Assembly: GCA_964502885.1 (NCBI GenBank)
Contig: CAZCXU010000002.1
Location: forward strand, 27,843 to 91,842
DNA from: an uncultured Gammaproteobacteria bacterium
Lineage (GTDB): Bacteria > Patescibacteriota > Microgenomatia > CAZETR01 > Amesbacteraceae
Direction of reading: 5' to 3'
Length of the DNA stretch: 64,000 nucleotides
Both the position numbers and the translations under genes were made by a program. Within the stretch, counting starts at the first letter, position 1; each line of letters opens with the position of its first letter. Below the pieces are notes generated by a model. The model made no database searches. It was not told the origin of the DNA and was given only the letters and a program-made list of their open reading frames with translations. This document shows, in pieces, positions 858-40,100 of this stretch.

Positions 858-1002
858 TGCGTACATCAAGAGTGACAGTTTCAAAAGAACTGTCCGGCAA
901 CCGAGCACAAAAACCGCCGCGGTGCCAACTTTTCGAGAGAAAGGAGATGTGCCAAGTTTTAATCCTTGGAAAAAGTTCTAACTCTCGAAAGAGAGTTTTT
1001 TT
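858..1002 (+). promoter_or_regulatory. Putative SAM riboswitch (SAM-I/SAM-IV clan variant) with terminator/SD-sequestering hairpin immediately upstream of metK
   Basis: The leader has a P1-like pairing ACAUC(863-867)/GAUGU(~945-949). It has AUCAAGAG-UGACAG, a hairpin GACAGUU-UCAAAAG-AACUGUC, then CGGCAACC (895-902), GGUGCCAA (921-928) and AAAGGAGAUGU. These resemble SAM-I/IV core motifs. The expression platform is AACUCUC-GAAA-GAGAGUU (980-996) followed by a U7 run directly abutting the metK ATG. An alternative CGAGAG (933-938) could pair with CUCUCG as an antiterminator. Confidence 0.5.
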
Positions 1003-6118: not shown

Positions 6119-7507
6119 ATGTTGAAAAAGGCAGTTGTTTGGGTAAAAAACAGGAGTCTGAAGCAGAAATTGCTACTGATCTGTTTGTTGGTAGCGGCAG
6201 TAGTGGTGAGTTATATGTCTACAAGCAACAACGGGTCTGCAAAGACGGTATACGCATCTGCAATAGTGGAAAAGGGGACATTGGTGACTTCGATTTCCGG
6301 GTCTGGAACGATTTCCTCGGGAAACTACAGCAACGTAAATACAAAAGTTTCCGGAGTAGTAAATAAAGTATATGTAACAAACGGCGACAAAGTGGTACGA
6401 GACCAGAAAATCGCGGAAGTGACGCTGGATGATTACGCCAAAGAAAGACAAACCGCAGCATGGGTCACATATCTGGAAGCTACCGAAGCCGTAAAAGAAG
6501 CACTAAATAATAAATCTCTGGCAGATATAGGAATGTGGAACGCAAGACAGGAAGTGCTTGATGCACAGGAAGCAAAAGATGATATGGAAGATAACGACAC
6601 AAACCCTGCCACACACGCTGTATATACCGACAACGAAAGAATGATTATCAATAAAACACTCGATCAATCGAGACTGGCTTTTTCCGTTGCGGAAGCAAAA
6701 TACAAAAACGCTGATGCAAATATCGCCAACGCTCATGCAAAAGTCGCTGCCGCCAAGAGAAATTACCAGGAAAACTCAGCGACAATCACAGCCCCGGAAA
6801 GCGGGGTTATCAGCGATTTACTACTGGCACCAGAACTGATCATCAATTCCAATTCAACAACCAGCAATACCAGCGGAGCGACGATAGTATCTGCTCAAAC
6901 CATAGCAAAAATCAGCAATCCAAATGGCCAACTGATGGCGACAGTAAATATGTCTGAAATAGACGTCATTTCTGTTAAAGCGGGGCAAAAAGTGACGATT
7001 ATACTGGACGCTTATTCTGATAAAACATTTACCGGTAAGGTGCTTGCTGTAAATACCAGCGGAACTTCCAGCTCCGGCGTCACTTCATATCCGGTAACAA
7101 TTCTTCTAGACCCGACAAAGACGGAAATTTATCCAAACATGGCAGTAAACGTAAATATCATTACCAAAGCAAAAAATGATGTCTTGATGGTGCCGACTAC
7201 TGCCATTACTTCCGCAAACGGTGTATCGACCGTACTGGTGAAGAAAGACGGCAAATACGAGACTGTGCAAGTAGAAACCGGAGATAGCAATGATTCACAA
7301 ACGGAAATTGTATCGGGACTTTCAGAGGGCGAGACCGTGGTGACTTCAATTACCACTGCGGGCGGATCAAATTCCAGCACAAACAATACAACATCGCCAT
7401 TCAGCGGATTGGGGATAAGAACCGGAGGCGGCGGCACCAGGGGAGGAACATCGACATCAGGAAATCGAATAATGATTCAGAGTTTTGGCGGTCCAGGAGG
7501 ATTCTGA
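6119..7507 (+). CDS. Efflux transporter periplasmic adaptor subunit (HlyD/MacA family) with Ser/Thr/Gly-rich C-terminal tail
   Basis: An N-terminal membrane anchor is followed by a coiled-coil-like region and a beta-barrel region (TITAPESGVISDL..., KVTIILDAYSDKTFTGKVL). It is the first gene of a three-gene operon with an ABC ATPase and an FtsX permease. Stop TGA and the next ATG are 1 nt apart. Confidence 0.8.
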   Translation: MLKKAVVWVKNRSLKQKLLLICLLVAAVVVSYMSTSNNGSAKTVYASAIVEKGTLVTSISGSGTISSGNYSNVNTKVSGVVNKVYVTNGDKVVRDQKIAEVTLDDYAKERQTAAWVTYLEATEAVKEALNNKSLADIGMWNARQEVLDAQEAKDDMEDNDTNPATHAVYTDNERMIINKTLDQSRLAFSVAEAKYKNADANIANAHAKVAAAKRNYQENSATITAPESGVISDLLLAPELIINSNSTTSNTSGATIVSAQTIAKISNPNGQLMATVNMSEIDVISVKAGQKVTIILDAYSDKTFTGKVLAVNTSGTSSSGVTSYPVTILLDPTKTEIYPNMAVNVNIITKAKNDVLMVPTTAITSANGVSTVLVKKDGKYETVQVETGDSNDSQTEIVSGLSEGETVVTSITTAGGSNSSTNNTTSPFSGLGIRTGGGGTRGGTSTSGNRIMIQSFGGPGGF

Positions 7508-7508
7508 C

Positions 7509-8219
7509 ATGGACAAGCCAATAATCGAAGTCTCGCATCTGAACAAAGTTTACAAATCAGATGACCTGGAAACTACTGTACTTTCGGACATATCAATAAA
7601 GATCAATCAGGGTGAATTTGTGGCAATTATGGGCCCTTCCGGATCCGGGAAGTCAACATTGATGCACATACTGGGAGCCCTGGACCTGCCGACAAGCGGC
7701 AGTTATAAACTGAACGGCGAAGAAGTGGGCAACATGACAGATGACAAACTTGCAGAAATCCGCAATAAACAGATTGGTTTCATTTTTCAAGCGTACAATC
7801 TCCTACCCCGGACATCTGCGCTGGATAATGTACTTGTGCCAATGGAATATGCCGGTATTCCGGAAGATCAGCAAGAAAAAAAAGCAATTGAACTGCTGAA
7901 AATGGTAGGACTTTCGGACAGGATGCATCACACTCCAAACAAACTTTCCGGAGGTCAGCAACAACGAGTAGCAATCGCAAGGGCGCTGGCCATGAATCCT
8001 ACAATGCTTCTGGCTGATGAGCCGACTGGAAATATAGCCACTGCGCAAGCGGAAGAAATTATGAGAATTTTTCAAAAATTGAACAAAGCGGGACATACGA
8101 TTGTGATGATTACTCACGAATCAGATATCGCCGGATATGCACAGAGGGTAATTTATATCAGGGATGGGAAAATAGTGACTGATGGAAAAAATTTAAAACA
8201 AAGATTATCAGCCGCATGA
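7509..8219 (+). CDS. ABC transporter ATP-binding protein (MacB/LolD-type NBD)
   Basis: Walker A GPSGSGKST, Q-loop, LSGGQQQRVAIARAL signature, Walker B LLADEPTGN and H-loop MITHE are present. The start is ATG 7509, not the upstream TTG. Confidence 0.92.
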   Translation: MDKPIIEVSHLNKVYKSDDLETTVLSDISIKINQGEFVAIMGPSGSGKSTLMHILGALDLPTSGSYKLNGEEVGNMTDDKLAEIRNKQIGFIFQAYNLLPRTSALDNVLVPMEYAGIPEDQQEKKAIELLKMVGLSDRMHHTPNKLSGGQQQRVAIARALAMNPTMLLADEPTGNIATAQAEEIMRIFQKLNKAGHTIVMITHESDIAGYAQRVIYIRDGKIVTDGKNLKQRLSAA

Positions 8220-9451
8220 TAATGGTTGTGAATATAAAGAAATTATTAATTAATGGAATGAAGAATTTGGGAATTAACAAAATGAGGACTGGGCTGGCGA
8301 TGCTCGGAATTGTAATTGGAATTGGAAGTGTAATAGCTCTGATGTCGCTGGGAGAGGCCAGTAAGATGGCAGTGCAATCGCAAATACAATCTATCGGATC
8401 GAATTTACTTACGGTATCTCCGGGTTTCACTGTGTCCGGAGGGGTCAGAGGCGCTGTTGGGGGCGGGACAACTCTCACAAATGATGATGCGAAAGCGATT
8501 CGCAACTCCGCTAAAGTAGCAACTATTAAGAATGTATCTCCGGAATATTCCGGACGAGCGCAAGTTACGGCCGGCAGAAATAATACAAATACAACAGTGG
8601 TGGGGGTAGAACCTGTGTATGCGGAGGTAAGAAAGATCTCTCTATCTTCCGGAACATTTATAAATGAGCAGCAACTTACCGCAATATCCAAGGTGGCAAT
8701 CATCGGTCCAAATACGGCGGAAGACCTGTTTGGTTCAGGTGTCGATCCGGTTGGTCAATCTATCAGAATTTCGGGCAAGTCGTTTCAAATAATCGGGGTC
8801 ACCAAGTCCAAGGGCGGGTCGGGAATGAATAATCAGGATGATCGAGTACTCATACCCCTAACGACGGCCCAAAAACAAGTGTTTGGGAAGAACTATCTGA
8901 CCGCGATCGCCCTGGAGGCAAAAAATGAAAGTGTCATGACCAGTGCACAGAATGAAGTCGGGTACCTACTGCTGGAAAGACATAAGATTTCTGAAGTGGC
9001 TGATGCTGACTTTCGGATAATGTCGCAAGCTGATATCCTGGAAACCGCTTCGCAGGTGACAGGCACCTTTACTTCAATGCTTACAGGAGTTGCGGCGATT
9101 TCACTCCTGGTAGGAGGAATCGGGATTATGAATATTATGCTTATGTCGGTCACTGAAAGAACGAGAGAAATAGGACTCCGAAAAGCATTGGGTGCAAAAC
9201 GAAGAGTCATAGTGGCACAATTTTTGACTGAATCTATCATTTTGACTTTTTGGGGAGGAATAATTGGAATTACCGCCGGAATATTAGGTTATCTATTGTA
9301 CGCAAAATTTAATGGCACCGCCTTTGTGGTATCACCAGGATCGGTGATGTTAGCGTTTAGTGTGTCTGCTGCAATAGGAATCGCATTTGGCTGGTATCCG
9401 GCGCAAAAAGCTGCCAACTTGCAGCCAATTGAAGCCCTAAAATATGAATAG
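8216..9451 (+). CDS. ABC transporter permease, FtsX/MacB family (~220-aa extracytoplasmic domain)
   Basis: N-terminus NLGINKMRTGLAMLGIVIGIGSV, a C-terminal FtsX 3-TM bundle with TERTREIGLRKALGA, and an ATGA overlap with the ATPase. Confidence 0.9.
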   Translation: MIMVVNIKKLLINGMKNLGINKMRTGLAMLGIVIGIGSVIALMSLGEASKMAVQSQIQSIGSNLLTVSPGFTVSGGVRGAVGGGTTLTNDDAKAIRNSAKVATIKNVSPEYSGRAQVTAGRNNTNTTVVGVEPVYAEVRKISLSSGTFINEQQLTAISKVAIIGPNTAEDLFGSGVDPVGQSIRISGKSFQIIGVTKSKGGSGMNNQDDRVLIPLTTAQKQVFGKNYLTAIALEAKNESVMTSAQNEVGYLLLERHKISEVADADFRIMSQADILETASQVTGTFTSMLTGVAAISLLVGGIGIMNIMLMSVTERTREIGLRKALGAKRRVIVAQFLTESIILTFWGGIIGITAGILGYLLYAKFNGTAFVVSPGSVMLAFSVSAAIGIAFGWYPAQKAANLQPIEALKYE

Positions 9452-9492
9452 TCTTAAGGATTACTTCAGTTTAGCGGGAATAAAATAGCACT

Positions 9493-9945
9493 ATGAAAGA
9501 CGTGAAGCCAGCGGTCGCAGCCATATTAATAGTGATGGGTGCGATAGTCGGATTTGGAGGAGGGATGTGGTACCAGAAGTCGAGGAATCCGATGCGGTCA
9601 GGGTTTCAGATGAGCGCCGGTAATCGATTTGGTGCGATTGGCGAAGGAATACAAAGACGGGCAATGTCGGGGTTCAATGGCGGTGGAATGGTGGTGGGTG
9701 AAGTAGCTGACAAAGACGGTGAATCATTGACAATTAGGACTATCGACGGCAGCTCAAAAATTATCCTGATAAATTCTTCCACTCAATATCGAAAATCAGC
9801 CGACGCAACCAGTGACGATATAAAAAAAGGAGACACGGTAGCAATTTCCGGAACAAATAATCAGGATGGCAGCATTACAGCCTCCAACGTGCAGCTTAAC
9901 CCCGGGTATGGTGTGAAAGTGACTGGTGTGCCCACGGAAAAATAA
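9493..9945 (+). CDS. Hypothetical membrane-anchored protein with beta-rich (OB-fold/BOF-like) C-terminal domain
   Basis: An N-terminal TM (AVAAILIVMGAIVGFGGG) is followed by a C-terminal GEVADKDGESLTIRTIDGSSKIILINSST...GDTVAISGT pattern reminiscent of periplasmic OB-fold proteins. No catalytic motif is visible. Confidence 0.45.
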   Translation: MKDVKPAVAAILIVMGAIVGFGGGMWYQKSRNPMRSGFQMSAGNRFGAIGEGIQRRAMSGFNGGGMVVGEVADKDGESLTIRTIDGSSKIILINSSTQYRKSADATSDDIKKGDTVAISGTNNQDGSITASNVQLNPGYGVKVTGVPTEK

Positions 9946-9978
9946 TCGGGAGTAAGCCGCTTTGACGAGTGATGCTAT

Positions 9979-11121
9979 TTGTGGAAAAATGTGTACATGA
10001 GAGAAGAAGGAAGAGAATTTTCAAGTATGACGGGGGGGATAAAAATTGAACTTGGCGATCACCCAGACAGCGCCACTGATTACCAAAAACTGGGGAGGAA
10101 TTTTTTTGGTGGAGATTTGTCGGTTAATGCATGGAATCCGGAAGTAGGTAAAAGGGTGGCAGTATATAAACCGGATACCCTTGCGCTCGATGGACAGCCA
10201 CGGACATGGGGAGAAAATGATTTTTCTCGGATTGAAAAGGCAGAGATATGGATACGTTTGCCGTCGAGAGTTGCGACGCTGAGACCGAAAGATTGTACCA
10301 TTCAGATCGTATGTGGGGATGTGGCATTTACAAATACCCCAGTAATTACCTCCCCTGATGTTGACCCTAATAAATACGATCAAGTTCGATATGGAGAACG
10401 AGATTTTCAACAAAAAATGACAGCAATAGCAAAGTTATCAGCAAATGTCGGCGCATTACTCGTAGCAGCGGGAACAACGATTGGTGAAAATACGGATAGC
10501 CGGGGGGAAAAGTCACGGGGGTTGACGAGAAGGCAGTTTCTGAGAAGAGCAGCTTTGACCGTGGCCGGAGTCATATCCACAAATTTGATGGCAGGATGGA
10601 CGCGAAGGGAGTTGCAAAAAATGGCTGCGAAAGGAGAAGACGCATCGGAGGCTGACGCGGCAATAGATGGCGCCGATTTCCTTTCCAAATTTACACCCTG
10701 GAACGAATATGTGGACGGGAGGACGGCACTTTTGATTGCAAAAACCAGAGAAGTATCCAATAATGCGGCCATTCTCCTCGGGTATAGCCATGGAACACGA
10801 CTGCGGGAACTCCTATCTTCAGCACAAACCAGGGGGAAACTTATAGCGGGACTGGCAACTTACGAACTGGACCTTATGGATAGGATCATTGATGAATATT
10901 TTCCGGGTGCAGATAAAGTCGAGGCTGCAGACAAGATGCGACTGTTAATTACCACCACGCAAGTGGCCGAAGTCAAAGACGTAGAGAATGAACTGCGTTC
11001 AGGCGATCCATTGGGATATGTGGATAGACATGTCAGACTAATTAGCACCCAGATCTGCAAAGAGGCGGAAGATGCAGTCAAGCCTGTTTTTGAAGCATAC
11101 AAAGAAAAGGTCCAGCAGTGA
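9979..11121 (+). CDS. Hypothetical protein, possibly two fused modules. The second half begins with a twin-arginine-like motif
   Basis: TTG start in the track, with ATG options at 9997 and 10417. There is an internal SRGLTRRQFLRRAALTVAGVIS stretch that looks like a Tat/signal peptide near residue ~180. No recognisable catalytic domain. Confidence 0.4.
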   Translation: MWKNVYMREEGREFSSMTGGIKIELGDHPDSATDYQKLGRNFFGGDLSVNAWNPEVGKRVAVYKPDTLALDGQPRTWGENDFSRIEKAEIWIRLPSRVATLRPKDCTIQIVCGDVAFTNTPVITSPDVDPNKYDQVRYGERDFQQKMTAIAKLSANVGALLVAAGTTIGENTDSRGEKSRGLTRRQFLRRAALTVAGVISTNLMAGWTRRELQKMAAKGEDASEADAAIDGADFLSKFTPWNEYVDGRTALLIAKTREVSNNAAILLGYSHGTRLRELLSSAQTRGKLIAGLATYELDLMDRIIDEYFPGADKVEAADKMRLLITTTQVAEVKDVENELRSGDPLGYVDRHVRLISTQICKEAEDAVKPVFEAYKEKVQQ

Positions 11122-11150
11122 TTTGCGGTATTTGACAAATATATGCAACG

Positions 11151-13187
11151 TCATTCGTAACGGAGGGCGTTGAGAGCAGAGATTTTGGTTGCCCGATGAG
11201 CAGGATATATGCCGGTGAGCAGTCCGACGACCAGAGAGAGCCCGATGACTATGAGTATGAATGCGGGAGGCACATGGGAGATATCAATAAACCCAACCCC
11301 CTTGAAAACGGCGAATGCCGAAAGCAGTACTCCCAACAACTTGCCCATAGTAAAGCCGATTAACACTCCGATAGCGCCGCCAAAAAAGCCCATTATCATG
11401 GATTCGGTGAGAAACAATTCCCGAACTTCATCCGATTTCATGCCAATTGCTTTCATGAGCCCCACTTCCCTGGTTCTTTCCAGCAATGAAACAGTAAGAG
11501 TATTGAACATACCCAATGATGCAACTGCCAAAGCTACCATGCCCAGCAAGGCAAGAATGGTCCTAATTGTCGCAAAGAGATTGTTGACCTGTTCGACAGT
11601 ATCTGCGACCGACCGAGTGGTGAAACCCAGATTTTCCACTGATTTACGGATTTTATCCAGATTTCCAGGAGATTTGGCAGCAAGTTTCAGTTGGCTGAAG
11701 TTGATAATGCCAGCCCCCCGAAGATCGATAAAAGGGACGTACATTATGGGAGATCTATCCTCCGGAATTACCCCGACTATTTTGTACTCAGCGGGAATGG
11801 TCTCAATTTTGGCTTGATCTTCCCCCGTGAGATTACCCACAATCACAAATGTGGTTGAGATGGTTTTTCCGATGGCTTCAGCGTCTTTGAGACCCAACAC
11901 CTTTACCATAGCTCTACTGACAACCGCTTCCCGCAGCGACTTATCGGATAATGGCACTTGCTTTACCGGAGCAACTGCGGATTGAGCGGAAACACTGGCA
12001 ATCTCCACCCAATCTCCATCCTCAATAATTCCGGATTCGGTCGCAAGAACTTCAGGGTTAAGTATTCCATCCGCACTGATGCCCAGAACTGATGAAGCTG
12101 GAGAAACCTGAACGTTTAATTGGGCGATATAACCACCTTTCACAACCTGCTCCCCCTCCTCTGTGACTTTCTGATATCTGCCATCTTCACACTCCGGCAA
12201 ACTGGGGTCGCACGCCCCCAGTTTCCATAATGGGAAATCGGAGTTAATCCAAGGCATCAGGAGATCTCCCCGACTATCGGCTGCCTGCGGCAAATCGTCT
12301 GACCCCGCATAAGAACTACCCCATACTTCTTTGCCCCGTAATTCACCGAAGTTCCTTTTTGTGTAACCTAAAATGGTGGATTTGGTACTGGGTCCTTGCC
12401 GAACACGCACCCATTCATCCGGTTCGATAGAATAATTGACGTCTCTGGAAAAACTGCCAAATTCCGCAGATAGACGCTCGCTGCTCATACCAGCTACACG
12501 ATCATCCGAAGGGATAGATGAGATAGAGAGGTCATTGTTTTCAAACACTGCACCCTCAACCGGTTTTATGGCCGACTGTTTGAGATAGTCAGAGGTAATA
12601 CCATAAACGGCTATGTCGGTGATTGAATTTTGGTAATTTATCCTTCCAACTACAGAGATAACTGGCAGGACAGACTCGACTGAATCGATGTTTTTGATAT
12701 CGTTGATGATTTTGTCATTTATTTTGACTTTGCTCCCAGTCTGCGGGCTGACGTCAGCCTGGCGGATTTCTTCAAGCCGAGCGATGCGGGTAACCACTAA
12801 ATTCTGCAAACCATAGCCCAAAGACACCAGAAAAACTATTGCTCCGATGCCAATAGTCATGCCCCCGATAGTAATCATGGTGCGGGTACGTTTGGCGCTC
12901 ATATTGCGAAGAGATAGTTCAATTAAATGAACACGAGAAATTGATCCTGCTCTACCACGATCGACGAATGACACACATCTGTTGAGGAAATTTTCCGAGG
13001 ACTTTGTCCAATTGTCGCGTACAGATACCGGAATCAGGCGAAGGCGTAGAATCCTGGAAAGAGCCTGTGTACTCATATAAACCGTCAGCAACAACATGAA
13101 GGAAAGGGTGGCCGAAGTCGATGATCCAACGCTTGTCCACAACCTGCGTGAGCCAATATTTTTAAATTTACTCAGTAATCTGAACAT
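11151..13187 (-). CDS. ABC transporter permease, FtsX/MacB family with very large (~450-aa) extracytoplasmic domain
   Basis: N-terminal motif LSLRNMSAKRTRTMITIGGMTIGIG and C-terminal FtsX bundle LLERTREVGLMKAIGM...IYPAHRATKISALNALRYE. ATG 13187 overlaps the upstream ATPase by 20 nt. An alternative start is ATG 12902. Confidence 0.8.
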   Translation of the reverse strand: MFRLLSKFKNIGSRRLWTSVGSSTSATLSFMLLLTVYMSTQALSRILRLRLIPVSVRDNWTKSSENFLNRCVSFVDRGRAGSISRVHLIELSLRNMSAKRTRTMITIGGMTIGIGAIVFLVSLGYGLQNLVVTRIARLEEIRQADVSPQTGSKVKINDKIINDIKNIDSVESVLPVISVVGRINYQNSITDIAVYGITSDYLKQSAIKPVEGAVFENNDLSISSIPSDDRVAGMSSERLSAEFGSFSRDVNYSIEPDEWVRVRQGPSTKSTILGYTKRNFGELRGKEVWGSSYAGSDDLPQAADSRGDLLMPWINSDFPLWKLGACDPSLPECEDGRYQKVTEEGEQVVKGGYIAQLNVQVSPASSVLGISADGILNPEVLATESGIIEDGDWVEIASVSAQSAVAPVKQVPLSDKSLREAVVSRAMVKVLGLKDAEAIGKTISTTFVIVGNLTGEDQAKIETIPAEYKIVGVIPEDRSPIMYVPFIDLRGAGIINFSQLKLAAKSPGNLDKIRKSVENLGFTTRSVADTVEQVNNLFATIRTILALLGMVALAVASLGMFNTLTVSLLERTREVGLMKAIGMKSDEVRELFLTESMIMGFFGGAIGVLIGFTMGKLLGVLLSAFAVFKGVGFIDISHVPPAFILIVIGLSLVVGLLTGIYPAHRATKISALNALRYE

Positions 13188-13921
13188 TACGCTTGCCTTT
13201 CATATTTGAAAATAACTTGTCCTTACTTTTTTCATCATACATACCCATTAATTTTCCATCGAAAATATGAATGGCAGACTGGGCATACTTGATATAGTCC
13301 AAATCGTGGGTGACCATGACGACAGTTTTCCCCTGTTTTAGACTCATGTCACGAAGCATCTGCATGAGCATTTGTCCCCCTTCATAATCCAAATTTCCGG
13401 TGGGTTCGTCGGCGATAATTATTTCAGGGTCGGTGACTAGAGCTCTGGCCAAAGCTATACGTTGCTGCTGTCCACTGGAAAGATCGGTGGGGCGGTAATT
13501 GGCCCATTCCAACATACCTACCTGCTTGAGAACTTCAGAGGCCCGGGCAGTGGTGATATCTTTTGCCTTACCCAAAAGCAGCATGGGAAAGCCGACATTT
13601 TCGATAACGGTCAGCGATTTAATCCAATTAGGCTGCTGATACACCATGCCGATGTGAGATTTACGAAAAGCGCTGCGCGCATCTTCGTTTGGCAGAGAGT
13701 ACAATTCCTGACCCAATATATTTACGCTTCCGGAAGTGGGAGGTTCCAGTCCAAGAATAATGTGCAGAAGAGTAGACTTGCCACATCCTGAAGGCCCGAA
13801 GATGACCACAAAATCACCCTTGGTAATCGATATTGATATTCCCTTGAGAATATGAATATCCTGGCTACCTACATGAAATTTTTTTTCGATGTCTGTAGTG
13901 GAAATGATTGATTGTCCCATA
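13168..13921 (-). CDS. ABC transporter ATP-binding protein (MacB-type NBD)
   Basis: Walker A GPSGCGKST, LSSGQQQRIALARAL, Walker B IIIADEPTGNLD and VMVTHD. The start ATG 13921 lies 4 nt after the stop of the giant upstream gene. Confidence 0.9.
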
Positions 13922-13925
13922 TATT

Positions 13926-16900
13926 TAACGACCAATTTGCCCCAGGAAACCAAATGCCTCCTGAAGACTACCTACAACTAAGTTAAGAGCATCGTCTGTG
14001 GCCTTGGGAGTAATAGTGACGGTATCTACTGAATAGGCGATGTTCTGAGCCTTATCTTTTGATACGGCACGGAAGTGGTAGACCTTTGATGGAGACAGAC
14101 CGGAAATTATCACCAGGTGGTTGAGTGTCATATTGGTATCTTCCTGAGTCTTTTGGCTATAAGTAGTTCCGGAACCTTCACCAAACTCCACCTGTGAAGT
14201 TGTCAATTCGTCAGTATTCCAGGAAACAACGATTTGGGCGGTCTGGTCAGACTTATTGCCGGAGTTTGTGACTATAGACCCTTCCGCCTGAAGGTCGGAA
14301 ATTAGCGCCGGACGTGTATCTGTGGCGGTATCGAATTTTTGCGGATCAGATACAGCTTCATTCCCGGCTTTGTCACGACCTTTGACGACCAGAGTGTAGG
14401 GAGTTTCGGACTGGAGGTTTTTGATAAGAATGCGATGCAGGCCCTTTACCAGGGTAACGTTTACCTCATCTTTGGCATCGGATGGTTTTCCTGAGGGATA
14501 GTAGGTGACGATGGAACTAACTTCGGTATTGGTTTCCCAACTCACCAGCACAGTCGGCTGGGCAGTGCCTTTTACCTGCTGGATACGAACGGTGGCAATC
14601 TTTGGACGCGGCAGGGTAGAAAAGCTTAGGATAGTCCCCTCGTATTCAGCTGACTCACTGTCAAAAGTATTAATCTTGTAGTAGTACTTTGTGCCGTCTT
14701 CCAAACCTGTCAGCTCCTGAGTGTAGGTGGACTCCGATGTAGAAGTGGAAATAGTGGCTACCCCACCAAAGGCCGTGGTCTTGCCATAATAAATCTTGGC
14801 GCTCGATGCGCCGGTAGTCGTGAACTGGACGTAAGCTGAGGTCAGGCCGGCAGTTTTTATAGCAGCATCTTTGACGGTGGGAGCGGCAGTCGTCGTGAAA
14901 CTTTTCTCTTCGGAGGTGCCTGTATTACCATCTTCGTCCGTCCACTTGGCTTTGTAATAGTAGGTTGTGCCGGGCGAAAGATTGGTCAAGGCAATGGTGT
15001 GACTGGCGACCTGGCTGGAATTACTCGGCTCGACTGACCCATACGAACCGGCGGATGTGCCGAATTGAATTTTTGAATCACAAGTGCGATCGGTAGTCCA
15101 GGTAATAGTGGCCTTTTTGGTAGTTATTGATCCGGCAGTCGGACCGGAAGTGAGCGAAGCTGCTGTAGTGTATTTTCCGGTAGGTGTTTCAGAGACCGAA
15201 CTGGACAAGGCACCGCAATTGTCTGCATCATCGCAAGCCTTTACTTTATAGTAATACTCGATTTGAGACAATCCGGTATCGACATAGGCTGTGCCAGTCG
15301 TAGACCCCTGGTAGGTATATGTCGAATCATTTGTGGAGCGATAGACCTTGTAAGCCGAAATACCGGAACCAACTGATGATGGGGCAGCCCATGAAACCGT
15401 AAGTCTCCAAGTAGAACTGTTTTTTATGGATATATCAGAAACTTCCAAACTGAGAGGTATGCCCGGAGCAGATGTATTGGCTGAAAATGACTGACTGCGG
15501 GCGTTGGCGTAGTCGATAGTACCTCCGTAGATGTCCGGATTTTTGGCGACCACCCAAAAGGTATTGTTTTGCATGGTAGCAAAATTGTCCGGTCCGACCG
15601 CGGTAACTCCGGCGGCAGTCCAGTTGCAGTGTTCGGCAGCATTTTCCGCAGTCGGCTGGCGATTAACCATGTAGCAATAACGAAGTTCTGATGACGCCCC
15701 AAGGTAACTACCAGAATCTGGCGCGTTCCAAGTGAAAGTAAATTCATTGACCGACTTAGTCTCATCGTCCACCGCAAGATTGTTTACCGGCCCAGGACCG
15801 GAACCGGCATAATAAAAAGTGACATAGCTTGGTGAAGCGGTAGCGTTGCCGGCATTATCGATGGCCCGAACATAGAATCTATTGGCCCCGCTGGTATAGG
15901 CGATATCGGTCAGAGAAATTGATGTTGAAGTGGTGGTAGAAGACCAGTCTGCCAATTCCGCCGAAGATGTGGCGGCATATTGGTATCCGGCAAGACTGGA
16001 ATCTGAGTCTGAAATTGCAGTCCAACTAAAACTGAATGAGTTTTGGCTGGTGTAGACTTCGGGGGAAACCGAAATTACGGGAGCTCCGGGAGCCGTGCCA
16101 TCGTACTTGTAAGTAAAAGCATCCGTGGTCTGACTTTTGTTGCCGGCGTTATCCAGCGCCTTGATTAATAAATGCAACTCCCCTGACTGGGTGGCAGTTA
16201 CTGAATAAGTAGTGCCGGCCTGAAAAGCCCCGTCGGTTTCCGGATCCGGATTTGAGTCCGTGAGACCAAAATAGACATAGTAACCAGACACACCAGCTCC
16301 GGTATCAGTGGAACCGTCCCACGAGAAGTAAAGCCGATTTTCGCCATACCACTGGGTATCCCCGCCGGTAATGATATCCCCTGAAGCATTGAGGACACGG
16401 GCTTCGGCTGTATCAGGGTCAGAGGGAGGGGTTGTATCGGTAGTACCATCGACACGGAGAGAATTGATCTGGACCTGCTGTGTACCATCCCCGGAAAGAA
16501 CTGCCCGCCAGAGGATCCCGTTTGAATTGACAGGGAATGAGGAAATATTTGAATTGATGTCTGATACTGAACTGGATTCGCCCAGGGAACTGCAAGCGGT
16601 GGTTGTCCAGGCAGAGTTGTACCAATACTTCCAGGTGGTTCCATTGTCGCTGGATATACAGTATTTAATAGTCCCCACTGCCGATACATCGGCAGTAAAG
16701 CCGCTCCAATCGTCTATCTGGGTAGTCAAACGTTTGGTGACAGGCTGTAGAGTGACGGCTGATGATGAGTATGGAGCAAGAACGAAGGAACTAGGTGATC
16801 TGGCAGTACCAGATACTCGCAGTTCATCAATGACAGCATCCAGGAATCCCCGTCCCGACCAGGTCTGGGAGCTACCATAAGAAGTACCCACAAGAAGCGG

Positions 16901-19900
16901 TCGAGCGGAATTCTCTAATGTGATAGTGCCAGAATCGTTGTTTGTCTGGACGCTACCATCTATATACATAGAAGCAGATGTGCCATTGTAGACTACGGCA
17001 TAATGATGCCAATCAGTCGGAGATGAAATGGCGGAATCTGATTCAACATATAAATTGTCTCCATAAGACCAAACTGTAGTTTCTGTCTGGTTTGAATCTC
17101 CGGTACCGGCATATAACTTACCTTTGAAAGCAGTCAATCCGTAGACGGAGTTTATGTTATCAGTTTCCAACCAAGTGTTGTTGTCCAGACCATCACCTCC
17201 GACCTGAGTCCAGGAAGTGCCGTCAAACCGCCAAACTTCTCCCTCGGCGTCACCACTGGATAGCCCGGCAAAAAGATAGCCGTTGTAAACTGTCAGTGAA
17301 CGGACGATTTCATAATCGGCCCCCCAACCTCCATATCCGGAGTCAGCACCGAGTCCGGCCACCTGCGTCCATGCCGACCCATCGTATTTGTAAACTTTGG
17401 CGTCACCAGTCGAAGCGCCCAGGCCGGCATAGAGTTCGTTGTTGTACATGGCCAGCGAATAGACACCCTCGATACCATGAGTATTCCACCAGGAACCATT
17501 GGCTGGCGCGGAAGTGGCCCCGGCATTGGCGATCTGGGTCCAGGTACCGGCTGTTTTGTTGTAGCTCCAGACATCACCATCACCCGCCGAAATACCCAAT
17601 CCGGCATATAACGTACCCGCATCGCTGATCAAACTGAGTACCGACTCAATATTGTCCGCATCCTGCCAACCAGTAGCGAGGGCGGGAGATTTTCTACCGG
17701 CAATCTGAGACCAGGTGTCTGCGGTGCCGTCGTACTGATAAACTTTTCCATCATCTGTCGAAAGACCAAGACCAGCGTACAAGTAACTGGAGTCGGAGGA
17801 GAGGCTGTATATGGCTTCGATATTGTCGGCATCCACCCATGAACCAGTCTTGCCTGATCCGTGCCCGCCAATCTGCGACCAGGCTGACCCGCTGTATTTC
17901 CATACCTGGCCGTCGTCACTGTTGGTAGTGTTTCCAAGTCCGGCATAAAGATCGCCACGATAATCAACCAAGCTCTCAACGGTTTCAATGGTGTTGTAAG
18001 CCCAGCTACTGTTAGTCTGCTGACCTCCAACAAGAGACCAAGTGGACCCATCGTACTCCCAAACAGTGGAATCACCGGTACCGGAACCTGTACCGGCATA
18101 GAGTTTTCCTGCCCTGGTGCTAAGCGACATAACCCGATCAAGTCCGTTGTAGCCCCAACTACCGTACTTGTACTGTGTACCTACAAGCTCCCAGGAGCCA
18201 GTATATTTCCAAAGCTGGCCCAAACCAGCGCTATTTGTATAAACCCCCGCATAAAGAGTGGAACCATCGAGGAGCATTGACCTGACATAAAGGTAATTAG
18301 CTCCTGTCCAGGTGGAGTTGACACCATCTCCGCCCAGCTTGGTCCAGCCAGCTGTATTGTTACAAGTAGAAGCCAAATCACAACTCCAAACCTCGGCGTC
18401 ACCTCCACTATCTCCAAGGGCGACATACAATGTGTCCGATCCGGCCTGATCATCGACTGCCAATTTCCAGATGCGTTCGAATGCATTGTTCCAGGACTGA
18501 GGCGCTGTACCTGAACCCGTGTTGCCATCAACAAGCGCTGTCCCCCCCCAGGCATTGGCACCGGTGCAGTTGGATGTGTCGGTATAGTTGCAACTCCAAA
18601 CTTCGGCATCACCAGCGGAAGCACCCAATCCTGCCAGTAACTGAATATCCCCTGATGTGTCTGTGTAGCTGGTGATGGTCATAACAGCCTCATAAGCGCT
18701 GTTTGCCCAGCTGCCGAGCGTGCCATCGCCGCCGATTTTTGTCCATCCGGCAGTTCTGGTGCATCCCGAAGACGTATCACAAGCCCACAATTCCGCTTCG
18801 CCAGTCGTATTGCCAAGACCGACATGAATGCGGTCTCCAATGAAATGAATGGCCCAAACCTGATCGTATCCTGAGTTCCAGCTATAGCCAGCAGAGGCAC
18901 TTCCTGAGTCACCGCCAATTTGAGTCCAACCTGTAGTTTTTGTACAAGCCACAGAAAGATCGCAGGTCCAAAGATCTCCTTCTGAAGCCCCATTACCTGT
19001 GCCGACGTAGAGATTTGTTCCATTGACTGCCAGAGCTGTGATCATATTTATGCCGGTATTCCAGCTATAGCCTGCGGAAGTACTACCGGAGTCACCACCG
19101 ATCTGATTCCAGGAAGTCTCTGATGAGTCGTAGTACCAAAGATCGGCATCACCGTCGCCGTTGCCCATGCCGACAATGAGATCATCACCATAGGCAACCA
19201 TCTGGGTAACCTCGTCGTATTGGTTGTCCGGCCAGCTACTGTATAAGGAATTGCCGCCTATGCGGGTCCATGAGTTGGTACCATCGAAACGCCAGACTTC
19301 AGCATCACCATTTGAGTAACCAGTGCCGGCATAAATATATGAACCAACTTTTACCAGAGAACTGACGCTCATCTTTCCGTCGGCGTCCCAACTGAGGCCA
19401 ATTTCACCACCGGCCTTCTGCGCCCATGTCTGGGTGGTGTTTGGCATAGCCTCGTAAACCAACTTGCCGGTCTGATTGTCAAAGTACATTTTGTATTCGC
19501 CTTTGTCGAGAATGTATTGCCTGTCCGGGTGTGTCCCTGCCGAAAAAGAATTATTGAATTTGACCCAAGATTCAAGAGTGTGCGAGCTTGAATCAGAAAG
19601 CGAGACGGCGTTTCCAGTGTCCGGTACGGAAATGTATGTGGCGGAACCATCAAGCTTTAAAGCACCAACTCCGGTACCAGTACCATCCAGTTTACCGGAG
19701 GTCCAAAGAACAGAGGGCGTCGGATTCGGGAGATTAAGCGTCCCATGATTTGAGCCAGTACTGGAGTCAGTGACGGTGGTCCCGGAAAGATCATCAAAGT
19801 GGGCCAGAAATTTGGTATTTGCATCGGATGAGTAGTTTCTGACTTTGAGCCGTGCAGAGGAACCGGTAATTTCGATAAGACTTGAATCGGAAAGAGTGTA

Positions 19901-20089
19901 CTGGTCAGCAGAAACAAATGTCCATTGATAGTGGCCGGCGCCTGATGAGTCGGCCAGAATAGGAGCCACACGCAGAGTTGTAAAAGCACCGGTAAGAAAA
20001 CCTAAAGTGAATCCCAAGACCACCAGAAGATTGAACTGCCACCGCATAAAGGTGACATGGCTATTTATTTTTGGCAGGAAATATGACAT
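13926..20089 (-). CDS. Giant (~2,050-aa) cell-surface protein: signal/anchor, LamG (concanavalin-like) domain interrupted by ~16 beta-propeller-like repeats, then multiple fibronectin type III domains
   Basis: N-terminal TM LLVVLGFTLGFLTGAF. The first LamG half is ATYISVPDTGNAVSLSDSSSHTLESWVKF. There are ~16 repeats of ~50-55 aa with consensus LYAG(L/T)G..GDAEVW.YDGS.WTQIGG. The second LamG half is DWHHYAVVYNGTSASMYIDG...GFLDAVIDELRVS. The C-terminus has at least 5 Fn3-like modules (YKVYRS...YYYKVKA; TYYYKAKWTDEDGN; TKYYYKINTFD; TPYTLVVKGRDKAGN; KVYHFRAVSKD). Confidence 0.85.
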
Positions 20090-20284
20090 GAAAATGGCTT
20101 TTAAATCCGGTTTACTGACAATTTTTACACTTAGGCCACGCAGCAATCTCCAATGAAGTGGCTTTCTTATGTATGGTAACTATATCCCGCAGAGATAATT
20201 CCTGTAAATAAGGTGTTATCGCCAGTTTTTTTTAAATTCGATTAGATAACCTGCCGGATATCCATTCATGATATTCTGATAGTG

Positions 20285-29188: not shown

Positions 29189-31036
29189 ATGTTAAACACT
29201 CACCTGATGATGGGGAAGCTTGGAAAGACTTTGGTGCTTGCGGCGGTATTTTTTTTCTTTGGTTTAGCCAAATCGGCAAGCGCGCAGACGTGTGAATTCA
29301 TTCCGATGGGGCCGGCTTTGACTGATTTGGGATCAAATGAATATCTGCGAATGACCTCACGTTCACCGGCAACTTTCCTGACTGCCGGAGTAATCGGAGG
29401 CCTATATCCTAATGGTTCGAACATCCGGCCAGCAATACACCAGGCTGCAGGGGAAAGCATAGCTGCCCAAATACGGCCTTTGGACGCAAATGGAAACCCC
29501 AGTACATCCGGATGGATAGGATTTGGGTCAATAGGTATGTCGAATACATCGATGGAATTTGGAAAGTTCAAATCTGTCGCTGATGCTGACCCACAAGTTC
29601 ATGACAGACTGAGAATTGCCAATACGGCGTTGAGCGGAGGGGTAATTGAGAGATGGGTCGATCCCCTGAGTCCATACTATCAACAGTACTGGAGCACTTT
29701 TGATCAGCAAGTGCACAATTACGGCCTAACGCACAGTCAAATACAGATAGTGTGGGCAAAAATCACTCAGTTTGCATACCAGCCAAATTTCCCCGATGAC
29801 ATGGTAGCTTTGAAAAATATGTACAAATCACTTGTGTATGAATTGAGAAACCGTCTGCCTAATCTGAAGATGATTTATTTCTCCAGTCGGACCAGATCGT
29901 TCAGTTACCTGAGAGGGTTGGCACCCGAACCAACTGCTTTTGAGAACGGAATCGCGGTTCGATGGTTAATTGAAGAGCAACTCAACAACGATCCATCCTT
30001 GAATTTTCGACCGGAGAATGGGCCAGTAACGGCACCCTATATCAGCTGGGGTCCGTATTTATGGATCGATGGACTTAATCCCCGATCTGACGGGAGAGTG
30101 TGGCCGATTTCATATGTAACCACCGACTGCACACATCCTTCCGAAACGGGAATCAATTATGTATCAGATATGATGATGGAATACTTTAAGTCTGATCTGA
30201 CAACCAGACCGTGGTTTGTGAATTCGTGGGCCCCCATGCCAACCCCTCGCCCAACTTCTACCGTCACTCCCACACCTACCATAGCTCCAACTCCCACAGA
30301 GATACCGTCAGCCACTCCAACGCCAACGACAGAGATCACTCCGACGCCTACAAATATTCCTACTCCCACAGCTACACCCACGGCTGTCCCCACAGCAACA
30401 CCGACTCCGACACCACTTCCAGCAGGCAGCCCGATTTCCTGGTGGGGGTTTGGACAGGATATGGTCACAGACGAAATCAACGGGTGTGGTGACTGCGCAA
30501 ACGTTTCTGCCACATGGTTTACTCCCAGCGTAATTTCCGGAGGGTATGATTTTAACGGCACCACTTCTTACCTGAACCTGGGAGCTTTCCCTTATCTCAA
30601 TGGGCGGAGCACATTCTCTCTGTCAGCCTGGGTCAGGCCGGATTTTGCGGTGACTGACACCACATGGAGATATATATTCTCGGATGGTAACAACGTACAG
30701 TTGTTTTATCTGGGGCAAAACCGTTATTGGAGGGCCAGCGTGAGGACAACCGCTGGCACTATCCGTGTCAATTCACCCACTGCTTCATGGACTCCCGGGA
30801 CATGGCATCAGATAGTAATCACTTATGACGGGGCCGCTATCAAGATGTACTGGGATGGGACACAAGTTGCCAGCGCTGTGGCCACAGGAAATGTGATGCC
30901 GGAATCCGGAGCCACCACTCTCGGGGGATTGGCCAGTATATCAACTACCAGATTTGACGGAGCAATAGATGAACTTAAGATCTACCCACAGGCGTTAACC
31001 GCTGAACAGGTGAACTCTCAATATTTGGCTCAGTAA
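29189..31036 (+). CDS. Secreted multidomain protein: unknown N-terminal ~330-aa domain, Pro/Thr-rich linker, C-terminal LamG (concanavalin A-like lectin) domain
   Basis: Signal peptide MGKLGKTLVLAAVFFFFGLAKSASA. The PT linker is residues ~350-410. The LamG core is TFSLSAWVRPDF...WHQIVITYDGAAIKMYWDGTQV...FDGAIDELKIYPQALTAEQV. Confidence 0.7.
   Translation: MLNTHLMMGKLGKTLVLAAVFFFFGLAKSASAQTCEFIPMGPALTDLGSNEYLRMTSRSPATFLTAGVIGGLYPNGSNIRPAIHQAAGESIAAQIRPLDANGNPSTSGWIGFGSIGMSNTSMEFGKFKSVADADPQVHDRLRIANTALSGGVIERWVDPLSPYYQQYWSTFDQQVHNYGLTHSQIQIVWAKITQFAYQPNFPDDMVALKNMYKSLVYELRNRLPNLKMIYFSSRTRSFSYLRGLAPEPTAFENGIAVRWLIEEQLNNDPSLNFRPENGPVTAPYISWGPYLWIDGLNPRSDGRVWPISYVTTDCTHPSETGINYVSDMMMEYFKSDLTTRPWFVNSWAPMPTPRPTSTVTPTPTIAPTPTEIPSATPTPTTEITPTPTNIPTPTATPTAVPTATPTPTPLPAGSPISWWGFGQDMVTDEINGCGDCANVSATWFTPSVISGGYDFNGTTSYLNLGAFPYLNGRSTFSLSAWVRPDFAVTDTTWRYIFSDGNNVQLFYLGQNRYWRASVRTTAGTIRVNSPTASWTPGTWHQIVITYDGAAIKMYWDGTQVASAVATGNVMPESGATTLGGLASISTTRFDGAIDELKIYPQALTAEQVNSQYLAQ
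30236..30422 (+). repeat. Low-complexity coding repeat (Pro-Thr linker codons ACN-CCN)
   Basis: ccaac/ccnac units are reiterated, encoding TPTPTIAPTPTEIPSATPTPT... Confidence 0.6.
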
Positions 31037-37148: not shown

Positions 37149-40100
37149 TTAGGGCAAATTTGACACGTCGAAGTCGATGTAGACTGTGCCTGCGGGTTTG
37201 ACACTGGTGGGGATGAGACTGGACATGCTTATAGTGGACCAGGCCGACCAACTATTGGTAGATACTGTGAGTGTCCGTTTGTAGACATTCTGACCGTTTG
37301 AAGATAGAGCGTATTGGTGAATCAAATCACTGGTTTCCTGATAATAGTCGATTGAAGTAGCTGAATCACCGTTTGGTAAACCGGTAATTGTGGCGTAGGT
37401 TGTGGACCAACCGGACAAGGGAGTGTAGCCTGATCCGTTCCAAGGAGCTGTGCGAGCATAGAAGACCTGGTCTCCTGTGCTGGGCTTGGCATAAAGAACT
37501 GACTGCTTAATGAGGGGGGTGCCGGAATTGGTGAGTACTTCTTCATCAAATCCATACTGAGTCCTGCCTACCGCCGGCAAGTCCAAGGCCGACGAAGCCC
37601 AGGCGTTGTACTGTCCGTAATAACTGCCAGCCCAGGGAGCTTCACGGTAATAGACACGACCATCGCCGGCATATAAGAAAGATTGTTTGAGGGCCTTGTC
37701 TGACTGCTGGCTTTTTACGACATAGTTGAGCGACTTTACTGGGACATTGATACTCATCTCGGTGACATTGCGGGAAGTCCAGGGAGTCCAAGAGTTGTCA
37801 TCTCCCTGATAACGGGTAAGAATTTCGGTGCCACCTGCAACAACCGCTGTCTGAATGACCTTTTTGTGCGGGACAGTGAAACGATAACTGGGCGCAGATG
37901 ACCAGGCTCCGGAATACACGGCGTGAACCCAAATATTGTAGGTGCGGCCCGGTTGGAAATGGTAACTAAATGATGATGCAGATATGGTCGAACAAATATC
38001 TCCTTCGGAAGAATTGATACAGTTCCAAGGGTCACTTTCATCGTTTATGCGAAGACCTGACTCAGTAGCTCCAGCTGGAAGCGTCCAGGAAATTGTCTGT
38101 TTGCCGGCATTTTGAGCTGAAACTGTGAGGTTGGTAGGCGCGAGTAATGGGGTAGGCGTGGGGGGCGGACGAGTGGGAGTGGGAGTATTGGTAGGGACGA
38201 TGGTCCCAGGAACAGTTACTACTCGTGAAACGGACCCTGACCATCCACTGGCATATACAGCATGGACCCAAATGTTGTAGGTACGGCCAGCCACAAAATT
38301 ATGAACATGAGATGAACCTGAAATGGTAGAGCATGCGTCTCCAGGGTTAGGAATACAGGAACCGTTCCATGGATTTGAGGTATCGTCTACCCTGACCCCT
38401 GATCCAACAGCCCCAGAGGGAAGATTCCAACTAATAGTCTGATTTCCAGGCGAGACGCTACTAACTGTTAAGTTATTGGGCAAGGGAAGTGGTGTGGGTG
38501 TAATAGCTCCCTGAAGCAAATCGTTTATCTCAACCATGTAAGTATCCTTTCCATAGTTTATGGCTGAGTCATTGCGCATCTGTCTGGTAGCTCCGGTGGT
38601 ATTGTTTTTTAATGTGACGTTTCCGGTGGAATTGACTGTAACCTGAAGCTCGTAAGTACGACTTACTCTTCCATTTGCAGGATTATCGACATGGTAGTAA
38701 TAGATGGATGACTTGGGTTTATTTGCCGTGGACGCACTGTTTGCAGCCGCAAAAGTCGCGGGGGAAATGTAAATATGGGCCCACATCTTTTTGTAATCGT
38801 TTTCATCGGCCATAATCAAAATCTCCTTTTCTTTCATAAATACCGGATAATTGATCAAATTTGCGGAACTGTGGTTGTAGAGTATTTTTCCACCAGCGCC
38901 ACCCGGGGAAACAATCTGAGATTCAACTTTTAGCAAGGACTTCCAGGTGCCAGCAGGGAAGTACACATATGAATCATTGGCGGTGGCGTCTTCGAATATC
39001 GGCCTGACCAATAGGGCATTGCCAAACATGAATTCGTTGCGAGGGTCTTTTTTGACGGCGTTTGTGACCGAAAGATCTGGATTATAAAAGTCATATAGCT
39101 TATATACCTCAGGATCGTTAGGATAATCGAAGAAAAGCGGTCGGGTGACGTACATTGACCCAGTCTCGTAGCTGCGCATAGCCTGATCATAGGCATATTG
39201 ATGCAATCTGTTCCTGAGTTTCCCGTAAAATATTAAAGCGTTTTTCACTGTAGTATTGGAGGTTTTGTCGAAAGGTACTGAGAAAATGGTGGCTCCCTGA
39301 AACACAGCTAACTGATTGGAGCGGAGAAAGACGTTGTTGTTTATGGTTCTGTTTGTGTTGCGAGTGCCATCTGGATTGAGAACGCCCTCATTATAGACAT
39401 CGTTGTAGAAAGTGACATTTTGTACTACCGGGTATCCCGACATAACTTCAGTAATTGCAGAGTCCAGTTGATACTTAAGTATGTAAGTGAGACGTTGGTC
39501 AAAATGGCCACGAATATCTTCGTGTATGTAGTCGGGAACTACCACGTCGGCAGGATTTGCGATCCAGGAATTGCGGGCAAGAATTACGAACTGATTTCCC
39601 AATCTATTGGTATAGTGCGGCATAAAGAGCGGGCCATAATTGTCACCTAAGTTTTGGGGTACTCCTGCAGGAGCAACTGTGGGAACACGATTTGGACCCA
39701 TAAACGAAACCACTTTGGCCTGATCATGTGCAGTCATGTCGTCAAACTTGACTCCTCCAAAATTGCCATAACCGGTCAAGGAGGCCCCATCGCCAGAACG
39801 AATAAGGTCAATCCAGCGATTAATCACCTGCGCAGTCGGAGAAAGCAAATAATGATCATCGCCGGGATCATTGCGGTTTGGGCCCATATACATGCGATTT
39901 GCGTCTATGAGTGGGTTACTTATCCCTACCTGCGAGAACTTGCTGAGGATTAAATTTTTATGCTTGAGATTCTGCGAATCATTTGCGGCATTGTCCAGTG
40001 ACTCATATTGAGTGACTCGCTGACGCATGCCTATCAAGGGAACCGTACCTCGACCTGTCAATGCTTTGTTGGGATGATTGGAAGTGCTGGTCAAAAATGA

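Follow-up and report, generated by a model that had tools for sequence, protein, structure and literature searches.

A putative giant surface protein of Patescibacteria with a split LamG domain that most likely holds two nested beta-propellers

Insertion of a beta-propeller into another globular domain is known from the prolyl oligopeptidase family, the nearest known architectural analogue of the protein described here, in which a hydrolase domain is split and encloses the propeller. In prolyl oligopeptidase and DPP-IV, the propeller lies between the N- and C-terminal segments of its host, an alpha/beta hydrolase, and this one propeller gates the active site. Fourteen four-stranded blades arranged in two seven-bladed rings are found in other proteins, such as Elp2, the Utp/WDR proteins of the small-subunit (SSU) processome, EML1 (TAPE), Sro7, and Aip1, which are eukaryotic and intracellular and whose propellers are not nested in another domain. 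Giant repetitive adhesins of bacteria, such as the RTX and LPXTG-anchored types, are secreted and combine a long stalk of Ig- or Fn3-like beta-sandwich modules with a lectin-like head as terminal binding region. ATP-binding cassette (ABC) systems of type VII, including FtsEX-EnvC, LolCDE-LolA, MacAB-TolC, YbbAP-TesA, and YtrEF, have a permease that contains MacB_PCD and FtsX domains, together with a separate ATPase, and the characterised systems are described (PMC12646458) as each acting on an extracytoplasmic partner. Here, we analysed a giant gene located in a 64,000-nucleotide stretch of DNA from an uncultured bacterium (contig CAZCXU010000002.1 of assembly GCA_964502885.1, positions 27,843 to 91,842; hereafter the window). 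In the family of this giant protein, unlike in prolyl oligopeptidase and DPP-IV, the host domain is a LamG jelly-roll, which appears to hold one to three propellers and has no evident catalytic site.

The giant gene lies at 13925..20146 on the minus strand as a single open reading frame (ORF) encoding 2073 amino acids (aa) from a TTG at 20146, as taken from the ORF list with start and stop read off the sequence. On balance, we favour the interpretation that its product is a Sec-exported giant surface protein of Patescibacteria, in which a split LamG domain with two nested propellers makes up a binding head that is carried by an Fn3 stalk and ends in a tail linked to an ABC transporter.

The giant protein holds, as judged from profile and sequence alignments, a single LamG domain that is interrupted by an insertion. 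The N-terminal half (aa ~112-236; 19439..19813, minus strand) and the C-terminal half (aa ~1031-1125; 16772..17056, minus strand) were each delimited by a match to Laminin_G_3 (PF13385; profile length 151, curated cutoff 27.6 bits), by a confident part of a structural model (predicted local distance difference test, pLDDT, of 78-93 and 76-93, respectively), and by alignment to the first and second part, respectively, of the solved structure 4qvs_A. Scanned alone against Pfam, aa 101-240 matched Laminin_G_3 positions 1-56 of 151 with 16.1 bits (E-value 0.013), and aa 1031-1135 matched positions 70-148 with 51.3 bits (E-value 1.8e-13). When aa 101-236 were fused in silico to aa 1037-1135, the match extended in one stretch over positions 1-148 of the profile and rose to 62.7 bits (E-value 5.8e-17). 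The original prediction, made from the sequence alone, had left two possibilities open, namely one LamG domain with a repeat array placed in one of its loops, or a pair of partial LamG domains, and had proposed a tiling of the two halves on the LamG profile as the check. The four motifs it quoted were located at aa 169-197, 218-233, 1045-1064, and 1100-1112, with the tandem array in between. The halves tile one domain (positions 1-56 and 70-148), and since they are complementary on the profile and their scores add when fused, neither is a complete, independent match. The first possibility was thus confirmed and the second discarded, also in view of contiguous LamG domains that align over the junction.

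Three comparisons with contiguous domains bear on the junction. A profile of the fused halves from nine family members aligned to residues 1-224 of the solved, contiguous 227-residue 4qvs_A in one stretch over the junction (E-value 6.9e-9). A contiguous LamG domain from Pirellulales (locus L080) aligned in a single reading frame to residues 117-222 and 1045-1124 of the giant protein, the space between the aligned blocks being 22 codons in L080 versus 822 residues in the giant protein. Within the window itself, a 615-aa protein encoded on the plus strand (29189..31036) contains a contiguous Laminin_G_3 domain at aa 456-609 (positions 1-151 of 151, 98 bits), and this domain, too, aligned over the junction of the fused halves in one stretch. 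The chain exits in the loop after the 'GKLVYEA' strand (~aa 236), and the LamG sequence resumes at ~aa 1031 ('NLYVES'). In three dimensions, both halves would pack into one beta-sandwich. The domain belongs, by sequence, to the same family as Laminin_G_3 domains such as 4qvs_A but differs from them in being discontinuous, with ~800 residues (14 blades) placed in one hairpin loop. Because of this discontinuity, standard whole-protein scans either miss the LamG domain or show the C-terminal half alone: full-length Pfam and NCBIfam scans of the intact giant protein returned no LamG match. The full-length Pfam scan overlooked Laminin_G_3 although the C-terminal half by itself reaches 51 bits.

The insert spans aa ~237-1030, which amounts to ~795-805 aa rather than the ~750 aa first estimated. 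It contains 14 repeats, with LYAGxG anchors at aa 271 to 1011 and a period of 51-70 aa, and a blade hidden Markov model (HMM) likewise gave 14 matches. The tandem array as such had been recognised correctly before, but not the count of ~16 given for its repeats. Each repeat comprises four strand segments, V.SL.., LYAGxG, (D/E)VWxY, and WxxIGG. Blades 1-7 (aa ~260-670; 18137..19369, minus strand) were assigned to a first seven-bladed propeller on the basis of the anchors, the HMM matches, the four strands per blade, and 7+7 fold matches, and blades 8-14 (aa ~671-1030; 17057..18136, minus strand) were assigned to a second one by the anchors, the HMM matches, the model, and the fold matches. In front of them, the entry of the insert (aa 237-259; 19370..19438, minus strand) carries an orphan 'TWAQKAGG' strand of the blade's fourth strand type, which is supported by the sequence register and by a strand in the model (E181-185). 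This orphan WxxxxGG strand (aa 240-247) opens the insert, and it is precisely the strand that blade 14, with three strands of its own, lacks. An orphan entry strand ('SW..SYDG') is also shared by relatives with seven blades. A 1+3 'velcro' register of this kind would bring both ends of the insert into one blade. Closed in this way, the ~800 residues would start and finish next to each other, a geometry required for insertion into a hairpin.

Modelling of aa 61-1140 with AlphaFold2 on a 32-sequence alignment gave an all-beta structure, with a mean pLDDT of 78.9 and a predicted template modelling score of 0.70, and both LamG halves were confident in it. DSSP assigned four strands per repeat over all 14 repeats. 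In a Foldseek comparison with the PDB, the best matches to the model were the tandem 7+7 propellers of Elp2, Utp/WDR proteins, EML1, Sro7, and Aip1, which spanned ~860-900 aligned columns with a template modelling (TM) score of up to 0.50 normalised to the target; at 9-15% identity, these proteins have no sequence relationship to the giant protein. Single propellers of ~330 residues superposed on part of the model with a TM score of up to 0.66 normalised to the target. A Foldseek search of the model against viral structures yielded generic propeller matches and nothing else. The view that the repeats are propeller blades is supported by this structure prediction, a check that had been suggested before, with four strands per repeat and tandem seven-bladed propellers as top fold matches.

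The atypical blades are 7, 8, and 14. Conservation at blades 8 and 14 is position-specific, and the most conserved columns of the family fall at the boundary between blades 7 and 8. Together with the fold matches and with blade numbers that step by seven among relatives (7, 14, and 21), these features support a two-times-seven arrangement, and on this indirect evidence the 14 blades most likely form two closed seven-bladed beta-propellers. No similarity was detected between blade i and blade i+7 within the insert, and hence nothing points to a seven-blade unit having been duplicated recently.

Two other arrangements of this region had to be weighed. That two independent, partial or degenerate LamG domains flank the repeat array seems to us barely tenable, and we rejected this explanation. 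The weak Pfam match of the N-terminal half by itself (16.1 bits, E-value 0.013) and the failure of the whole-protein scan to return any LamG match could be read in its favour, but the two halves cover non-overlapping, complementary parts of the profile whose scores sum on joining, contiguous LamG domains, one of them solved, align straight over the junction, and the N- and C-terminal halves always occur together in intact members. Moreover, the blade strands begin at aa ~241 and extend to aa ~1030, which leaves no residues beside either half to complete another domain. Very improbable as well is an arrangement of the 14 blades in one large ring or an open solenoid, of which the single 14-blade ring was rejected. 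The orphan entry strand is joined to blade 1 by a linker as long as those usual between blades, and the missing similarity between blade i and blade i+7 could also be accommodated by a single array. Against this, tandem 7+7 propellers lead the fold matches over ~860-900 columns, single propellers of ~330 aa can be fitted onto part of the model with TM scores of up to 0.66, the blade numbers of relatives step by seven, and blades 7, 8, and 14 are special. We therefore retain one split LamG domain with two nested seven-bladed propellers as the most likely structure of the head.

The architecture is conserved well beyond the window. A first search returned 42 homologues, which, where named, were from WWE3, Saccharibacteria CPR2, or Moranbacteria and called 'LamG domain-containing protein', and every full-length member of this set contained the N-terminal half, a long blade array, and the C-terminal half. 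When 1.84 billion cluster representatives were searched exhaustively, 1252 proteins were retrieved at an E-value of 1e-3 or below and 104 at 1e-30 or below, the best relative being a colinear 2076-aa protein with 55% identity. We classified 184 related proteins with half-specific HMMs and the blade HMM and found both LamG halves in 43 of them. About 24 members have 14 blades between the halves (insert of 722-870 aa), 13 have about seven blades (insert of roughly 290-450 aa), and one, P0044, has 21 blades (insert of 1085 aa); the same entry and exit motifs are present in the 7-, 14-, and 21-blade members. In the 21-blade member, encoded at 7001-14032 of locus L085, presumably three propellers are nested in the LamG loop. 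In two proteins, P0059 and P0126, the insert contains about 250-300 residues in addition to its 14 blades. The LamG domain of P0087 is contiguous, its seven blades being located elsewhere in the chain.

A scan of species-representative genomes with an 8-sequence alignment as query identified 22 loci with the full architecture, labelled mostly as Saccharibacteria or Patescibacteria, with a few bins labelled otherwise, and the giant proteins across the loci are 35-42% identical. The recurrence in 43 of 184 proteins and at 22 genome loci rules out chance as the origin of the architecture, and the lineage of the giant gene is Patescibacteria. Four of the full-architecture loci (L007, L011, L022, and L024) come from bins that bear the label Gammaproteobacteria or Bdellovibrionales. 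With 46-58% identity between their giant, ABC, and MacB genes and those of the window, they are probably mis-binned or mislabelled contigs of Patescibacteria. At two loci, L001 (8001-14011) and L002 (8001-13881), the giant gene is called as two ORFs overlapping by a few bases, one for the LamG-propeller part and one for the Fn3 part, which could reflect a gene that is truly split, a frameshift, or an error in sequencing. The blade family is also found outside these loci: in P0038-P0042, five to eight blades make up the C-terminal part of phage-tail proteins with PF13550 and PF23666, which suggests, by sequence likeness, that the blade may be a receptor-binding module common to phages and Patescibacteria.

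Downstream of the LamG domain, a ~100-aa beta domain (aa ~1135-1235; 16442..16744, minus strand) is conserved in homologues and has no Pfam match. It is followed by a stalk of about eight Fn3-like modules (aa 1238-2046; 14009..16435, minus strand), as defined by Pfam matches and by proline-rich linkers every 92-112 aa. The Pfam matches in the stalk include fn3 (44.6 bits, three stretches), Pur_ac_phosph_N (70.7 bits, four stretches), and PhoD_N, and weaker Fn3/Big_13 matches lie within aa 1233-1532. Five C-terminal Fn3 modules had been read as a stalk before; the stalk fits our analysis, and five modules are clear in Pfam, but the linker spacing raises their number to about eight. We estimate the length of the stalk at roughly 30 nm. 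The protein ends in an amphipathic C-terminal tail (aa 2047-2073; 13928..14008, minus strand; '...KATDDALNLVVGSLQEAFGFLGQIGR'), which is conserved at the C-termini of the family. The tail consensus '(K/R)A(S/T)(D/E)xx(L/V)x...L...FG(F/L/I)' was present in 14 of 14 intact C-termini of the first homologue set, and variants of it occur in most 14- and 21-blade representatives. Some 7-blade relatives have a C-terminal transmembrane helix and a basic cluster in place of the tail, which fits an orientation in which the C-terminus lies close to the cell and the head, at the N-terminus, is distal.

At the other end of the protein, a hydrophobic N-terminal segment (aa ~34-65; 19952..20047, minus strand) with a hydropathy peak at aa 37-58 ends in 'PILA|D'. 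One hydrophobic segment together with a 'hydrophobic-x-A' motif right before the mature domain was found in all 11 intact N-termini of the family (11/11), and the segment is probably a cleaved Sec signal peptide, with cleavage deduced from the sequence motif. The end of the gene had originally been set at 20089, which does correspond to an in-frame ATG at codon 20, but the ORF opens further out at TTG 20146; another in-frame ATG lies at 20047. No convincing ribosome-binding site was found before TTG 20146, ATG 20089, or ATG 20047, and the choice of the start codon is without effect on the analysis of the architecture.

The giant gene is accompanied by the genes of an ABC transporter. An ABC transporter ATPase (13168..13953, minus strand; Pfam ABC_tran, 124.6 bits) probably starts at ATG 13920, 4 nt past the stop of the giant gene, and its gene overlaps with that of a MacB/FtsX-type (type VII ABC) permease in a long form of 678 aa (11151..13187, minus strand; Pfam MacB_PCD, 58.7 bits, and FtsX, 72.9 bits). 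The closest solved relatives of the permease are YtrF, MacB, Spr0694-0695 (5xu1), and LolC/E/F. Genes for the ATPase and the permease adjoin the giant gene at all 19 loci with enough flanking DNA, and at 18 of these 19 informative loci they lie directly downstream on the same strand. At the exception, L004, the ATPase gene is located ~1.25 kb upstream on the opposite strand. The annotated loci L001, L002, and L085, the last of which encodes the 21-blade member, have the same ATPase and permease neighbours. The window contains, in addition, a canonical MacB-type set on the plus strand, consisting of a HlyD-like adaptor (6119-7507), an ABC ATPase (7485-8219), and a MacB_PCD/FtsX permease (8216-9451). 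The operon of the giant gene has no adaptor gene, and the giant gene occupies the place that the adaptor takes in the canonical set (6119-9451). Gene order suggests that the tail and the ABC system could be physically coupled. The giant protein would differ in this from the known type VII ABC systems, none of which is known to be paired with an Fn3-stalked protein of ~2000 residues. The partner permease has ~320 extra residues between its MacB_PCD segment (aa 103-221) and its FtsX domain (aa 548-670) and an N-terminal extension of ~100 aa; one stretch of it looks SH3-like by eye. This long form is found at eight loci and a form of ~400 aa at the others.

Elsewhere in the window, a SAM-I/IV riboswitch (S-adenosylmethionine riboswitch; 858-985, plus strand; 47.9 bits, above the gathering score) is located directly upstream of an S-adenosylmethionine synthetase gene (1003-2103).

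How could such a protein work? In the mechanism we propose, the chain of the LamG jelly-roll would leave in a beta-hairpin loop at ~aa 236, build the 14 blades, and re-enter LamG at ~aa 1031. The resulting LamG-propeller head may serve as a distal binding module for a ligand on the surface of host cells or in the environment, probably a glycan. The Fn3-like stalk would project this head away from the cell, and, in place of a classical anchor, the MacB-type ABC system encoded alongside would hold or handle the 20-residue C-terminal tail. The adhesin role proposed for the head is indirectly supported because the same blade family is found at the C-terminal end of PF13550 phage-tail proteins and because no enzyme families were matched.

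Secretion and anchoring of the RTX or LPXTG kind do not describe this protein. An RTX or type I secretion adhesin was rejected, as the adjoining transporter is of the MacB type and an adaptor gene is missing from the operon. Pfam and NCBIfam scans of the giant protein found neither repeats of the RTX or haemolysin type nor LPXTG or any other recognised sorting signal, and its N-terminal signal-like segment also speaks against the RTX/type I class. In its general plan of a long stalk with a binding region at the end, the giant protein would resemble these adhesins. It differs from them in having no RTX repeats, HlyB-type exporter, or LPXTG motif, and in having a nested LamG-propeller head and a MacB-type ABC partner.

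Other functions remain to be compared with that of a stalked adhesin. The protein might be a structural component of the envelope or the surface layer (S-layer), with the neighbouring ABC genes encoding an ordinary efflux or housekeeping transporter that is merely co-transcribed. We regard this as unlikely. The closest solved LamG relative, 4qvs, is annotated as 'S-layer domain-containing protein', and these genomes commonly encode MacB-type transporters, including a second set in the window and a second pair in L085. However, a mere coincidence of neighbours is difficult to reconcile with linkage at 19 of 19 informative loci across proteins that are 35-42% identical, as well as in the 21-blade variant, with giant and ABC genes that abut or overlap, and with an operon in which the giant gene stands where a canonical adaptor gene would be expected. 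A long Fn3 stalk with a distal head would also not be a lattice-forming design. Somewhat less likely still is a head that acts as an enzyme, for example as a glycan hydrolase or lyase that attacks polysaccharide of the host or the environment. In favour of such a role, glycoside hydrolases are known with concanavalin-like folds as well as with beta-propellers, and the sole single-sequence PDB match of the fused halves was a 'putative glycosyl hydrolase' (4qhz, E-value 0.016). A GH31-like Fn3 protein is also encoded elsewhere in the window; this 1346-aa protein (37149-41189, minus strand) matches Glyco_hydro_31_3rd and fn3 and may be a surface glycosidase. The giant protein, on the other hand, matched no hydrolase or lyase family in Pfam or NCBIfam, its conserved LYAGxG, GDAEVW, and WxxIGG motifs recur in every blade as structural motifs would, not as one active site, and phage-tail proteins employ its blade family at their receptor-binding end.

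Several observations count against our preferred interpretation of a secreted, stalked binding protein with a nested head and an ABC-linked tail. An AlphaFold2 prediction of the in-silico fused LamG halves, run without an alignment, reached a pLDDT of 36.8 and was uninformative. Among the curated propeller families of Pfam, the best matches were Kelch_6, Kelch_4, Kelch_3, and Kelch_1 at E-values of 0.11-4, below the cutoffs, and the insert found no relative among PDB sequences at an E-value of 1 or below. The evidence linking the tail to the transporter is of one kind, gene order. A 7-blade relative that has no stalk also has no ABC/MacB neighbours, which agrees with the model but is a single case. 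A search with the stalk and tail for other heads gave 129 matches, nearly all of them fragments at contig ends and thus uninformative. Finally, no ligand, binding site, or catalytic motif of the giant protein was identified.

The components of the giant protein and its neighbours, namely LamG, propeller, Fn3, and MacB-type ABC, are already known. In the literature, including a Cell 2023 transposon sequencing (Tn-seq) paper, we found no paper describing the nested LamG-propeller family or its fixed pairing with a type VII ABC system. The suspicion that the architecture is unusual was well founded: it is a conserved design that is not described in the literature found. In the databases, the family carries generic names, 'LamG domain-containing' or 'fibronectin type III domain-containing', and the split architecture explains why automated annotation assigns such labels. 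As a practical warning, split domains in long repetitive proteins slip past routine annotation. The family also offers a clean, conserved case of a very large domain insertion, in which one, two, or three whole propellers would be accommodated in the hairpin of a small jelly-roll, and the way in which an 800-residue insert can bring its two ends together would be explained by the velcro closure built into it.

It is an open question by what means ultrasmall Patescibacteria recognise host cells and keep hold of them, and type IV pili are the main subject of the literature we found. A concrete candidate for an attachment device is a conserved, putative giant surface protein whose head is lectin-like and whose gene lies beside those of a MacB-type ABC system. 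More speculatively, and only as a tentative proposal, the family could represent a new class of surface device, in which an Fn3-stalked LamG head with one to three nested propellers is docked through its tail to a dedicated type VII ABC system, whose ATP-driven mechanotransmission would hold, actuate, or release the protein during host attachment. If the coupling is real, the giant proteins would be a new kind of partner for the type VII ABC mechanotransmission systems.

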